Shown: positions 1 to 5,076 of the stretch, in pieces
Position numbering within the stretch: position 1 is the stretch's first letter
Layout: the number at the start of each line of letters is the position of its first letter
Source: a virus
Lineage: Duplodnaviria; Heunggongvirae; Uroviricota; Caudoviricetes
IMG/VR virus record: IMGVR_UViG_2663762849_000013
Direction: 5' to 3' (one strand)
DNA: 5,076 nucleotides
The notes under the pieces: model-generated
What the model saw: the letters and a program-made list of their open reading frames with translations, nothing else
Told to the model about the DNA's origin: nothing
Databases searched by the model: none
Made by a program: the position numbers and the translations under genes

Positions 1-41
1 GCTTTGAACTCTTTAGAGTAACGTTGGGTTTTTCTGCTCAT
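1..41 (-). CDS. IS3-family transposase OrfA, first 13 codons only (runs off the window)
   Basis: ATG at 41..39 on the minus strand, preceded by AAGGAG with about 7 nt spacing. The translation MSRKTQRYSKEFK shows the RYS-EFK opening typical of the IS3-family OrfA helix-turn-helix region. Confidence 0.75.
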   Translation of the reverse strand, partial: MSRKTQRYSKEFK

Positions 42-105
42 TATTAGCTCCTTCTGATGCCATTCTATTTCAGGAAGGAGTGTCCGTTAAACTCAGGCTA
101 CCTCA
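1..105 (-). mobile_element. IS3-family insertion sequence (IS600-like), left end with terminal inverted repeat; the element continues beyond the window start
   Basis: The minus-strand sequence from 105 downward reads TGAGGTAGCCTGAGTTTAACGGACACTCC, which has the TGA...CTGA.TTT...CAC layout of IS3-family terminal repeats. It is followed by AAGGAG and an ATG at 41..39 that opens MSRKTQRYSKEFK, matching the OrfA N-terminus of IS600-type elements as I remember it. The outer boundary at 105 is approximate. Confidence 0.8.
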
Positions 106-731
106 TCCTTTTCCGCTGCATTATAAATCATCATCCACTCATCAAAGGTCAGTCGTTGCCGTGATATCCGTACCTGTGGTTTTTTTGCCGATTCTGCAGG
201 GTTAAAGCCTGGCGAGACATCGCCCGTTTGCTGGGCCTCCCGGAAAACATCAATCAGTACTTTCCTGAAAATTTGTCCCATTCTGTTATGTCCTTTTGCC
301 TTGTAATCTTCCAGCACCGATACCACATCTTTTACGGTTATGGCATCTAATGGTCTGGTACCAAAACGTTCATCAAATACCCTGAGAGGGGATGCTTTCT
401 GTTTCAGTGTGTTGAGTTTGATCTCTCCGTTTTCATATCTTTCCTGTTGAATTTTTCGGTAACTATTCAGAAAAACAGAAACGGTTGATGAACCACCGGT
501 ATCACGAATAATTTTCTCCTGCAGAGTGAGCATTTGTTCCATTTGTTGCCTGGCAAGACGGCTGTTCGCTTCTGCTGCAATAGCTTCTGCCTGTTTCTGG
601 TCAATACTGCCGAGCCCGTGATTTTTTCCTGTTATGGGATGCCTGTAACGCCAGTAAACTTTGTTATTTCTTTTGTCAAAATACGGAGATAATCCCGGAA
701 CTTCAGTTTTATATTTTCGTGGGCGCGCCAT
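93..731 (-). CDS. int: Lambda-family tyrosine integrase, N-terminal arm-binding and core-binding portion only; truncated by the IS insertion (probable pseudogene)
   Basis: The 212-aa ORF opens MARPRKYKTEVPGLSPYFDKRNNKVYWRYRHPITGKNHGLG and contains RLTFDEWMMIYNAAEK, which parallel the lambda Int N-terminus and the YLKIYQAAE region. The last five codons (DEVA, stop) are read from the IS terminal repeat. No catalytic domain is encoded in the window. Its start overlaps the xis stop by 23 nt, as in lambda. Confidence 0.85.
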   Translation of the reverse strand: MARPRKYKTEVPGLSPYFDKRNNKVYWRYRHPITGKNHGLGSIDQKQAEAIAAEANSRLARQQMEQMLTLQEKIIRDTGGSSTVSVFLNSYRKIQQERYENGEIKLNTLKQKASPLRVFDERFGTRPLDAITVKDVVSVLEDYKAKGHNRMGQIFRKVLIDVFREAQQTGDVSPGFNPAESAKKPQVRISRQRLTFDEWMMIYNAAEKDEVA

Positions 732-957
732 CTTCCAGTATCCTCTTCAAAGCAGGGTGATCTGTGGCGATCACTTCCGGCTTGTTTACCATTCCGACAA
801 AGCGAGCTCGAGGATCCACTCGCCAGTGTCTTCCAACTTTTTTGGGGAGAGGAAATATCATTCCGGCTTTAGCGTATTTACTTAACGTGCCCGGAGTAGG
901 GACCGGTTCACTGAATTCCTCTTTTGCCCACTCAGTGAGCAGAATAAGTCTTGCCAT
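709..957 (-). CDS. xis: Excisionase (Xis, lambda-like)
   Basis: The 82-aa ORF sits immediately upstream of int and overlaps it. It contains LTEWAKEEF and IFPLPKKVGRHW, which resemble the lambda Xis motifs LTLQEW and IFPPPVKDGREY. Position and size are as expected for xis. Confidence 0.8.
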   Translation of the reverse strand: MARLILLTEWAKEEFSEPVPTPGTLSKYAKAGMIFPLPKKVGRHWRVDPRARFVGMVNKPEVIATDHPALKRILEDGAPTKI

Positions 958-1021
958 GAGCGTTGTTCGCTAATCATGGCCGCCGCCATTATAGCTTGCG
1001 GACGACGACCGGGGTTGAACA

Positions 1022-4174: not shown

Positions 4175-4189
4175 AAACGTCACCAGAAA
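4137..4189 (-). ncRNA. dicF: DicF small regulatory RNA (Hfq-dependent; targets ftsZ and other mRNAs)
   Basis: The reverse complement of 4137..4189 is TTTCTGGTGACGTTTGGCGGTATCAGTTTTACTCCGTGACTGCTCTGCCGCCC, which matches the 53-nt DicF sequence of E. coli as I remember it. It is followed directly by TTTTT and lies between the ydfC-like and dicB genes. Confidence 0.85.
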
Positions 4190-4530
4190 ATTGATAACAG
4201 AGGGCGTTGCAGCGGGGTTGTCACTTAAGCGTATGGTCAACCTGACAACCCGGTGTCCTCAACGGGGGAAGAAATAACCCCGCCATACTTACCGCCGCAC
4301 CATTTCGCGGGTTGCCACAACCGGAAGCGCACGGTCGACGAAAATTTAACGACAGGCTATCTATGAACCAGCTACCTCGCCGTGCGCTTTCGCGTTATGG
4401 TCTGACTTTTCAGGGAAATATCCTTTCAGTAAACTGTCAGTGCCGGATGCTCACCCGCGTCCGGCGCACGCACTCCACCTCACCCGTGGAGAACTACTTA
4501 ATTACCAACCTTAGCTTCGTTGGTTAGCTA

Positions 4531-4749
4531 TTAACGCGGGTATGTAATCATTCTGGCAATGCTTAATGCCGCTGCTTTTTCCAGCCTGGTGATATCCTGC
4601 TCCAGAGCGGACAGATTTTCAGCCTGCTTAGCCCTGGCTTCATTGGCCCATTTCAAATCCTGCGCTGCATTAATTTTCTGGCGCATCCACTCATAAAGTT
4701 CATTATCGGTATAGTCTGGAGCGATGATGACGGGTTCTCGTTTCTGCAT
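4531..4749 (-). CDS. ydfC: YdfC-like small protein of the dicB operon, function unknown
   Basis: The 72-aa ORF has GAGGA 7 nt upstream of its ATG. Its C-terminal half (AQDLKWANEARAKQAENLSALEQDITRLEKAAALS) looks coiled-coil-like. It sits immediately upstream of DicF, the position of ydfC in Qin, and has the same length as I remember for K-12 YdfC. The assignment rests on synteny and size. Confidence 0.6.
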   Translation of the reverse strand: MQKREPVIIAPDYTDNELYEWMRQKINAAQDLKWANEARAKQAENLSALEQDITRLEKAAALSIARMITYPR

Positions 4750-4841
4750 ACTGATTCCTCGCGGTGCTGTTTCGCTTATCAGCCGTTAGATTTTGCCGAA
4801 CTGAAAAGCACCTGTTTAAATTCGTTGAAGCTGTGAGCTTC

Positions 4842-5076
4842 GGTGATGCTGCCAACTTACTGATTTAGTGTATGATGGTGTTTTTGAGGTGCTCCAGTGG
4901 CTTCTGTTTCTATCAGCTGTCCCTCCTGTTCAGCTACTGACGGGGTGGTGCGTAACGGCAAAAGCACCGCCGGACATCAGCGCTATCTCTGCTCTCACTG
5001 CCGTAAAACATGGCAACTGCAGTTCACTTACACCGCTTCTCAACCTGGTACGCACCAGAAAATCATTGATATGGCC
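4842..5076 (+). mobile_element. IS1 insertion sequence, left end (inverted repeat GGTGATGCTGCCAACTTACTGAT), continuing beyond the window end
   Basis: From 4842 the sequence GGTGATGCTGCCAACTTACTGATTTAGTGTATGATGGTGTTTTTGAGGTGCTCCAGTGGCTTCTGTTTCTATCAGC matches the canonical IS1 left end and insA leader as I remember them. Confidence 0.95.
4897..5076 (+). CDS. insA: IS1 InsA (transposition repressor / N-terminal part of the InsAB' transposase), first 60 codons, partial
   Basis: A GTG start at 4897 gives (M)[59 protein letters not shown], the InsA zinc-finger N-terminus. The ORF track missed it because the start is GTG and the ORF runs off the window. Confidence 0.9.

Follow-up and report, generated by a model that had tools for sequence, protein, structure and literature searches.

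Probable recent insertion-sequence-driven decay in the early-left arm of a Qin-like, ompW-type prophage of Escherichia coli

The Qin prophage of Escherichia coli K-12 (b1571-b1579) is laid out as ydfABC-dicF-dicB-ydfD-ydfE(pseudogene)-IS2E-intQ(pseudogene), with IS2E lying between the exonuclease and integrase pseudogenes. In K-12, dicBF has an operon structure with a single promoter (PMC10448788; PMC5069750), and the polycistronic dicBp transcript is the sole source of DicF and dicB, DicF arising from it through RNase E/RNase III processing (PMC10448788). Expression of dicBF is toxic (PMC10448788), and host-level roles have been documented for both DicB and DicF (PMC6832061, PMC5069750). A second described group, the ompW prophages (PPompW), occurs in 44% of complete E. 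coli genomes; all of them appear defective with IS insertions, their early regions being relatively conserved (Nakamura et al. 2021, PMC8112680). Finally, related genes are found in the phage records Tritos, mEp460_ev081, Evi, PhiR42_1 and vB_EcoS-689R5. In Tritos, whose 46-kb record is described as a complete phage genome, the order runs CI, three small genes in the positions of ydfA, ydfB and ydfC, DicF, dicB, ydfD, a 2472-nt exonuclease, xis and int.

Here we describe a 5,076-nt stretch of DNA (the window), which is the entire contig CCBY01000343.1 of GCA_000936105.1 (5,076 bp), a short-read draft assembly. The prophage genes all lie on the minus strand, in the order ydfB'-ydfC-DicF-dicB-ydfD-exo-xis-int', and this gene content marks the window as the early-left arm of a lambda-like prophage that resembles Qin and belongs to the type integrated at ompW. 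The gene order is that of Qin. However, Qin is a different prophage: the K-12 match is confined to positions 2727-4841 of the window (~95%), its DicB is identical at only 39 of 62 residues, and its integrase is of a different type and adjoins ynfP/rspB, whereas the relatives of the window adjoin ompW. The lesions described below (IS600, IS1, W185* and D646G) differ from those of Qin and are independent of them, and unlike in Qin, an IS element also cuts the operon upstream of dicF. As for PPompW, positions 104-4841 are 93.1% identical over 98% to LC567839 and 10 other LC5678xx records, which have int-xis-exo-ydfD-dicB-ydfC in common with the window. In the window, the attL/ompW side of these prophages is replaced by IS600; the ompW site is that of the relatives L026 and L028. 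About 1,650 complete genomes carry this arm.

The phage records listed above share exo-ydfD-dicB with the window at 92-96% identity, and several also share ydfC. In contrast to the window, their exonuclease is intact and keeps the Asp of the D-x-E motif (shown for Tritos), their integrase, which is of another type, is intact as well, and IS elements are absent. Since complete phage genome records carry exo-ydfD-dicB, the dicBF module is, judged by this distribution, no hallmark of domestication.

Two prophages, L026 and L028, are nearly identical to the window. Over the 4,738 nt of positions 104-4841 they differ from it by one base (99.98%), namely in the stop at codon 185 of the exonuclease gene. 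In both prophages int (376 aa), exo (823 aa), ydfB, ydfA and a CI-like repressor gene are intact, and int adjoins ompW. Because near-identical prophages with intact genes differ by a single base, both IS insertions and the stop codon appear to be recent. We propose that three recent, lineage-specific lesions (IS600, TGG to TAG, and IS1 in ydfB) would have been added to an older, clade-wide replacement of Asp646 by Gly. The comparison with intact relatives suggested in a preliminary description of the window thus assigned three lesions to its own lineage, whereas D646G proved clade-wide and the divergence amounted to one base. Overall, the locus probably represents ordinary, recent IS-driven prophage decay, the lesions lying where chance would put them given the sizes of the targets; three random lesions would miss xis, ydfD, dicB and DicF together with P = 0.64.

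The fragmentation of the assembly and its sisters raises the question of whether chimeric joining produced the IS ends and a base-call error the stop codon, and two sister contigs (L006 and L009) do join exo to phage tail genes in a chimeric-looking way. Nevertheless, 8 additional contigs (7 belonging to other NCBI draft assemblies and 1 to a Logan run) show the IS600/int junction, 2 additional contigs show the IS1 junction, and 4 sister contigs share W185*. Given this recurrence, neither the junctions nor the stop codon is an isolated error, and the junctions coincide exactly with canonical IS termini, which leaves an artefact scarcely credible. Both IS junction sequences were absent from GTDB species representatives and from 5,426 complete E. 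coli genomes.

The contig itself ends in IS copies because the draft assembly halts at repeats. Two different IS elements within 5 kb had been pointed out as part of the decay pattern. Since the window is an entire draft contig, this pairing is partly a selection effect, and paired IS elements at the ends of short draft contigs should be regarded as a by-product of assembly and no sign of unusual IS density.

At the integrase end, positions 1-105 (minus strand) hold the left end of IS600, consisting of its terminal repeat, TGAGGTAGCCTGAG..., followed by the initial 19 codons of orfA (MSRKTQRYSKEFK); the reverse complement of this end reads TGAGGTAGCCTGAGTTTAACGG...ATGAGCAGAAAAACC. It is ~99% identical to copies annotated as 'IS3-like element IS600 family transposase', and its 105 nt display the TGAGG... 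terminal inverted repeat followed by the orfA start, as in IS600 (IS3 family). The junction with int carries a 2-nt ambiguity (103-105). In agreement with the IS600-like element reported earlier in int, the insertion interrupts the 376-codon integrase gene behind codon 209. The resulting open reading frame, int' (93-731, minus strand), follows the 376-aa Int of L026 for native residues 1-209 and continues with 3 IS600-derived codons (EVA) and a stop, 167 residues being gone. Pfam finds only Arm-DNA-bind_1 (PF09003, 2.8e-22) and Phage_int_M in int', so that the Arm DNA-binding and central domains are retained. The PF00589 catalytic domain, with its R-K-H-R-H-Y residues, is missing, while intact copies such as that of L026 have PF00589. 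The IS600 insertion would thereby have removed the integrase catalytic domain specifically in the lineage of the window, and excision of the prophage by its own integrase would no longer be possible. This and the other functional consequences given here are drawn from established knowledge of the protein families and of the operon. The excisionase gene xis (709-957, minus strand; 82 aa; Pfam Exc 3.6e-07, residues 6-74) is intact and overlaps int by 23 nt.

The exonuclease pseudogene occupies positions 1022-3493 (minus strand) and, with 823 codons (2472 nt), has the same length as intact annotated genes. The encoded protein starts with a YdfE_N/YdfE_C module, which a long linker joins to a DEDDh 3'-5' exonuclease domain of the Rv2179c-like type at the C-terminus; the C-terminal 177 residues match PF16473 (Rv2179c-like) end to end (4.2e-60). 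The one nonsense codon noted in the preliminary description is a TAG at codon 185 of 823 (W185*; 2939-2941, minus strand), where relatives have TGG, corresponding to a C->T change at position 2940 of the plus strand. It divides the gene into two open reading frames of 184 and 632 aa, of which the 184-aa product gives the YdfE_N/YdfE_C match.

The second lesion lies in the exonuclease domain, where a putative active-site substitution had also been proposed. Codon 646 is GGC (1556-1558, minus strand), giving IGLETMG in place of the IDLETMG of relatives. Across 120 aligned cluster representatives this position is Asp in 99, another residue in 6 and a gap in 15, and Gly in none. The residue aligns with the Asp of 'IIDFETMG' in PDB 8kel, a solved exodeoxyribonuclease, and its assignment to the active site is based on this alignment together with motif conservation. 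The ExoI Asp-x-Glu motif consequently reads Gly-Leu-Glu in the window, with the Glu retained, while the ExoII Asp (ANFDNV; column D 119/121) and the ExoIII His-x4-Asp (PHNALDDA; columns H/D 115/115) are present. The window exonuclease thus has the ExoI Glu, the ExoII Asp and the ExoIII His-x4-Asp in common with the DEDDh Rv2179c-like family (PF16473; 8kel). It differs from this family in having Gly for the first ExoI Asp and a premature stop, and in that its domain ends an 823-aa phage protein with a YdfE-type N-terminus. From these motifs, the exonuclease would be inactivated twice over, by the stop and by the loss of a metal-binding Asp.

The distribution of the two lesions differs. GGC at codon 646 was found in 17 of the 17 clade loci covering the codon, intact 823-aa open reading frames among them; D646G is, from this distribution, the older allele, common to the whole clade. 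No match of at least 99% to this G646 clade was obtained among the 5,426 complete RefSeq E. coli genomes. Scaffold LM996879 (L023) is a relative with an exonuclease of the same allele clade. In the G646 clade the exonuclease has additionally suffered an 86-bp deletion and several frameshifts of independent origin; of the 16 unique events in the clade, 10 fall in this gene (P = 0.12; small sample). Three NCTC/nanopore-type assemblies (L019, L021 and L025) were left out as evidence of decay because their scattered 1-nt indels, which in L021 and L025 split flanking or other genes too, resemble sequencing error. A different allele, Asp646Asn, occurs in a full-length exonuclease of an O16:H6 strain. 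Full-length alleles without the catalytic ExoI Asp (Asp646Gly and Asp646Asn) have therefore arisen at least 2 times.

We then considered the genes associated with division control. The homologue of ydfD (DUF1482, 62 aa; 3589-3777, minus strand; Pfam DUF1482 2.9e-15) is intact, as is dicB, which encodes the 62-aa cell-division inhibitor (3774-3962, minus strand; Pfam DicB, PF05358, 6.4e-37, residues 1-62 of 62) in a reading frame with no stop or frameshift and with 39 of 62 residues as in K-12 DicB. The 53-nt sRNA DicF (4137-4189, minus strand) matches Rfam RF00039 with 76.7 bits (gathering score 48; E = 2.9e-16) over model positions 1-52 of 52, is identical to K-12 dicF (b1574) at 53 of 53 nt and has the terminator hairpin and U-run. 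The 72-aa ydfC (4531-4749, minus strand) is also intact, with 70 of 72 residues as in K-12 YdfC, and exactly this protein is present on many contigs. The operon context downstream of ydfC is conserved, and xis, ydfD, dicB, DicF and ydfC are base-for-base the same as in L026 and L028, in line with the earlier observation that DicF, dicB, ydfD and xis are free of lesions.

Upstream of ydfC, the left end of an IS1 element occupies positions 4842-5076 (plus strand), with the left inverted repeat GGTGATGCTGCCAACTTACTG followed by insA, whose initial 60 codons (from a GTG at 4897) are present. Within the 235 nt present, the element is recognizable as IS1 by its left inverted repeat GGTGATGCTGCCAACTTACTGAT and by the insA N-terminus (Zn_ribbon_InsA, HTH_Tnp_IS1), and it is 100% identical to the IS1 copy in L019. 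An IS1 upstream of ydfC had been reported; more exactly, it starts at 4842 inside ydfB, after nt 67 of this 129-nt gene. The 3' remnant of ydfB (4779-4841, minus strand), aligned to L026 ydfB at 9843-9971, comprises codons 23-42 and the stop and encodes EAHSFNEFKQVLFSSAKSNG*. The insertion is located between ydfC-DicF-dicB and dicBp, the sole promoter known for dicBF. In L026, ydfA has a TTGACC-17-TAAACT site upstream of it. In the window, insA and its promoter point away from ydfC, and a scan, by consensus only, of the minus strand between IS1 and ydfC found no sigma-70-like site and detected no outward or internal promoter that might drive ydfC-DicF-dicB.

IS1 insertions are classically polar. 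In the window, IS1 would split the sequence-intact ydfC-DicF-dicB-ydfD block from dicBp/PL upstream of ydfA, or, if IS1 had mediated a deletion or inversion, rearranged DNA could form the spacer instead. As IS1 divides it from its only known promoter, the intact ydfC-DicF-dicB module is probably without transcription, although some may come from read-through or from a weak hybrid promoter formed where IS1 ends. DicF and DicB are most likely expressed less than in intact relatives, and are not specially preserved. The division-control module can accordingly be called intact, as it was in the preliminary description, with regard to its coding and RNA sequence, but not with regard to its connection to dicBp.

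Given the toxicity of dicBF upon expression (PMC10448788), the IS1 insertion in ydfB could have been selected for blocking or re-setting expression of the DicF-DicB-YdfD cassette. Independent insertions between dicBp and dicF do occur elsewhere, with ISEc23 in ydfC of strain 1324KP and IS1A between ydfC and dicF in RIVM_C039205. However, these are three events only, the interval from ydfA to dicF makes up ~20% of the arm, so that no enrichment is shown, exo and int are struck by IS elements as well, and the consensus scan did not detect an outward promoter. We consider adaptive silencing or rewiring quite improbable.

The intact division genes beside damaged excision and recombination genes had been taken as typical of domesticated cryptic prophages, in which the host would keep the DicF/DicB division-control and phage-defence module by purifying selection while genes for excision and recombination, useless or harmful to it, decay. 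In favour of this view, Qin of K-12 has reached the same end state, and DicB and DicF have the host-level roles cited above. Yet only one base in 4,738 nt separates the copy in the window from its intact relatives, which leaves no time for selection on the division module, and IS1 strikes the division operon itself. Among the 16 unique events in the clade, none falls in dicB, DicF, ydfC or xis, as domestication would predict, but the probability of 0 of 16 events in these 710 nt is 0.11, which is not significant. The dN/dS comparison that had been proposed, made against a relative ~5% diverged, gave 0.11 for int, 0.29 for xis, 0.23 for exo, 0.37 for ydfD and 0.12 for dicB; the values (0.11-0.37; small sample) do not separate lytic-side from division genes, int and exo being as low as dicB. 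Across 16 complete E. coli genomes, taken as a spread sample, exo was moreover intact in 16 of 16 and int in 15 of 16, while ydfC was broken twice and the dicB module deleted once. Together with the presence of the dicBF module in complete phage genome records, these observations make domestication unlikely, and in these small samples the module displays neither a deficit of lesions nor one of dN/dS beyond chance.

The exo gene was disrupted in 2 of ~6 G646 lineages compared with 0 of 18 D646 copies (Fisher P = 0.054), a difference that would fit domestication. The additional frameshifts, the 86-bp deletion and the share of unique events that fall in this gene point to relaxed selection specifically on the exonuclease of this clade, in partial agreement with the preliminary description. 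The decay that had been described there is borne out by the disabling nature of the lesions, the Qin-like layout, the generally defective, IS-containing state of ompW prophages (PMC8112680) and the extra exonuclease lesions of the clade; selective retention of the division genes is not.

The IS1 plus IS600 combination had further been regarded as characteristic of Shigella and some E. coli lineages. Among 5,426 complete E. coli genomes, a collection that omits Shigella, IS600 left ends are present in 3,060 and IS1 in 4,978. The named relatives are labelled E. coli, save one Shigella sonnei fragment in the exonuclease cluster. The combination is no identifier of Shigella.

Taken together, the form of decay preferred here, recent and IS-driven, is already known and well described, and the arm belongs to a common E. 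coli prophage type. The importance of the locus beyond annotation is small. In annotation, the window is best given as a PPompW/Qin-like prophage's early-left arm in which int and exo are pseudogenes and ydfB is interrupted. Since IS1 stands between the module and its promoter, the intact DicF/dicB sequence is not to be taken as proof that the module is expressed or under selection. A small lead comes from exonuclease alleles that have repeatedly lost the catalytic Asp but are otherwise intact. Combined with the repeated IS insertions between the dicBF promoter and dicF, this loss could mean that hosts select for switching off both the nuclease activity and the toxic DicF/DicB/YdfD cassette and retain the proteins, or their N-terminal YdfE module, for another role, a scenario that we regard as very unlikely.

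The window corresponds to the complete contig CCBY01000343.1 of the draft assembly GCA_000936105.1, and all of its prophage genes lie on the - strand. The left terminus of an IS600 (1-105) forms the left end, and is followed by a truncated int (93-731), xis (709-957), the 823-codon exonuclease gene exo (1022-3493), ydfD/DUF1482 (3589-3777), dicB (3774-3962), DicF (4137-4189), ydfC (4531-4749) and a 3' remnant of ydfB (4779-4841). The left terminus of an IS1 (4842-5076), whose insA reads away from ydfC, forms the right end. Since draft contigs stop at repeats, the presence of an IS at both ends of this short contig is partly a product of how the window was made. 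The two IS elements, the nonsense codon and the active-site substitution named in the preliminary description all proved real. As it had also stated, xis, ydfD, dicB and DicF carry no lesion in sequence, and the same holds for ydfC; all 53 nt of DicF agree with K-12 dicF.

The Int ORF matches the intact 376-aa integrase of L026, one of the two closest intact relatives, through residue 209, and ends after three IS600-derived codons with a stop, the 167 residues containing the catalytic domain being lost. Such an integrase would be unable to recombine, which would leave Xis useless alone. The exo gene has the length of its intact homologues, with TAG at codon 185 where TGG is expected (W185*). 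At codon 646 it reads GGC, giving IGLETMG in place of the IDLETMG of relatives. This position belongs to the DEDDh domain (Pfam Rv2179c-like, 4.2e-60), where its Asp opens the ExoI Asp-x-Glu motif; in the solved exodeoxyribonuclease 8kel the counterpart is the Asp of IIDFETMG. Asp occupies the position in 99 of the 120 cluster representatives that were aligned with the query, and Gly in none. The remaining motif residues (ExoI Glu, ExoII Asp, ExoIII His-x4-Asp) are retained. The product, truncated and also lacking a metal-binding Asp, is predicted to have lost its function.

The relatives allowed these lesions to be ordered in time. An exact look-up of the YdfC protein led to long contigs in which the same prophage arm adjoins ompW. 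Only one base, the stop-creating one at position 2940, separates window 104-4841 from two of these contigs, L026 and L028, whose genes for int (376 aa), exo (823 aa), ydfB, ydfA and a CI-like repressor are all intact. The one-base distance implies that both IS insertions and W185* are very recent and lineage-specific. GGC at codon 646 is found in all 17 loci of the window's allele clade (G646 clade) that cover the codon, uninterrupted 823-aa ORFs included; Asp646Gly is older than the IS insertions and the stop codon. Assembly noise does not account for the junctions or the stop codon, as they recur in further contigs: the IS600/int junction in eight (seven from other NCBI draft assemblies and one from a Logan run), the IS1 junction in two and the TAG in four. 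Loss of the catalytic Asp from otherwise intact exo alleles is mildly unexpected; besides Gly in the G646 clade, Asn (GAC to AAC) arose independently in E. coli O16:H6 CU37RT-2 (NZ_CP082774.1, 1519-3990), in an uninterrupted 823-aa exo with the other catalytic motifs intact.

Several further features of exo were observed. Its dS against L001, a relative about 5% diverged, falls from 0.33 (codons 1-184) to 0.07 (codons 186-630), and contigs of three unrelated assemblies (L012, L013, L017) end at most 1-2 nt from window 2939-2942, at codons 184/185. This point coincides with the end of the YdfE_N/YdfE_C module and resembles either a repeat boundary or the joint of a mosaic or recombination event; the new stop codon sits exactly there. 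A G646 sub-lineage (L019, L020, L023) carries a 1-nt deletion (nt 1751) and an 86-bp deletion (nt 2306-2391; L026 exo numbering), L023 having one more frameshift; L020 and L023 retain intact int and xis, and int of L019 has a 1-nt deletion. In the sister contigs L006 (1-742) and L009 (1-205), exo runs straight into phage tail genes (joins at window 1714 and 1837), either as assembly chimeras or as true prophage-prophage rearrangements. L027 (GCA_002245075.1, 10801-13924) contains a tandem second dicB-ydfD-exo (N-terminal part), the copies being 99.6% and 93% identical to the window.

The preliminary description had placed the lesions on the lytic side, with the division-control module spared. 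This stands for int and exo and for the module's sequence, but not for the IS1, which is not a lytic-side lesion: it sits inside the dicBF operon, after nt 67 of the 129-nt ydfB. The K-12 operon runs ydfA-ydfB-ydfC-dicF-dicB-ydfD(-ydfE). Processing of a transcript starting at dicBp, upstream of ydfA, yields both DicF species there, and the study detected no internal promoter (PMC10448788; PMC5069750). L026 has a TTGACC-17-TAAACT site between the repressor gene and ydfA. In the window, the IS1 stands between ydfC and this upstream promoter region, its own promoter points away from ydfC, and a consensus scan of the - strand between IS1 and ydfC found no sigma-70-like site. IS1 insertions are classically polar. 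Taken together, this suggests that the DicF/DicB module, intact in sequence, is probably under-expressed in the window's strain. Independent IS elements lie between the dicBF promoter and dicF in other strains: ISEc23 cuts ydfC in NZ_CM173850.1 (5025-7941), and in NZ_CP086620.1 (4955-6347) an IS1A separates ydfC from the dicF region. Both mirror the window's IS1 in ydfB. This recurrence in unrelated strains is mildly unexpected.

Around DicF, a 54-codon ORF (4364-4527, + strand) runs antisense to the operon between DicF and ydfC, in the region giving the 190-nt DicF precursor; it is predicted by gene finders in several relatives and annotated in L045 as the hypothetical protein WP_001296188.1. 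A sub-threshold Rfam match to STnc100 (3930-4139, - strand; 34.7 bits, gathering score 47, E = 5.9e-05, model 1-206/206) spans the dicF-dicB spacer and the dicB start. Window 3953-4199, from the dicB start to DicF, matches Aeromonas phage AP1 (MT713136, 254 kb) at 99.2%, unannotated there. Such a match is unexpected for that host and is probably due to contamination or chimerism of the AP1 record. At 79-86% identity, ~3978-4236 matches Stx phages (75/02 Stx, POCJ13) and ~3992-4115 the P1-like phages P7 and D6.

The interpretation first given thus holds in part only. Domestication with preferential retention of the division module, as first proposed, found no evidence in its favor from chance, clade events, dN/dS, 16 genomes or phage genomes. 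With xis, ydfD, dicB and DicF together occupying 13.8% of the arm, the probability that three random lesions all fall outside them is P = 0.64. Leaving out the error-prone assemblies L019, L021 and L025, the clade has 16 unique events, ten of them in exo (45% of the length; P = 0.12) and none in dicB, DicF, ydfC or xis (P = 0.11); this distribution is a trend only, not a result. The dN/dS values against L001 were 0.11 for int, 0.29 for xis, 0.23 for exo, 0.37 for ydfD and 0.12 for dicB, so that long-term constraint on the lytic-side genes equals that on the division genes. Among 16 complete E. coli genomes taken in even steps down the hit ranking, exo and xis are annotated as intact in all 16 and int in 15; one frameshift and one ISEc23 insertion disrupt ydfC, and the whole dicB block is deleted once, beside an IS1. 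Two further loci, chosen outside this sample since their hit rows showed IS elements, have an IS1A between ydfC and dicF and an IS3 in exo. The module also belongs to ordinary phage genomes. The 46-kb record of phage Tritos, given as a complete genome, carries CI, then three small genes where ydfA, ydfB and ydfC would lie, DicF, dicB, ydfD, a 2472-nt exo, xis and int, and several other deposited phage genomes match at 92-96%.

Some match to the arm occurs in 4,833 of 5,426 (89%) complete E. coli genomes, with at least 80% covered in 1,647; none of the 5,426 complete RefSeq genomes matches it at 99% or more, and both junctions are absent from GTDB representatives. The G646 clade was seen solely outside this collection, in drafts, NCTC sets and two CP-accession GenBank records. 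The pairing of IS1 with IS600 had been taken as characteristic of Shigella and some E. coli lineages; with IS600 left ends in 3,060 and IS1 in 4,978 of the 5,426 genomes, it is not diagnostic of Shigella. Named relatives are labelled E. coli, except for one Shigella sonnei fragment (exo cluster). One relative with an exo allele of the window's clade has a scaffold accession in the LM996xxx range, in which two further accessions are those of Norwegian E. coli FHI strains.

The K-12 cryptic prophage Qin has the same gene order and has met the same fate, with a ydfE pseudogene, IS2E and an intQ pseudogene, although it is a different prophage, as only window 2727-4841 matches, at ~95%, and DicB is identical at 39 of 62 residues. 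Sequenced PPompW prophages, integrated at ompW, match at 93% over 98% of the arm. This family was reported in 44% of complete E. coli genomes, all copies appearing defective, with IS insertions and relatively conserved early regions (PMC8112680). Given its likeness to both, the window is a new instance of a well-described phenomenon: the type of prophage decay is already known, and what is new is this instance.
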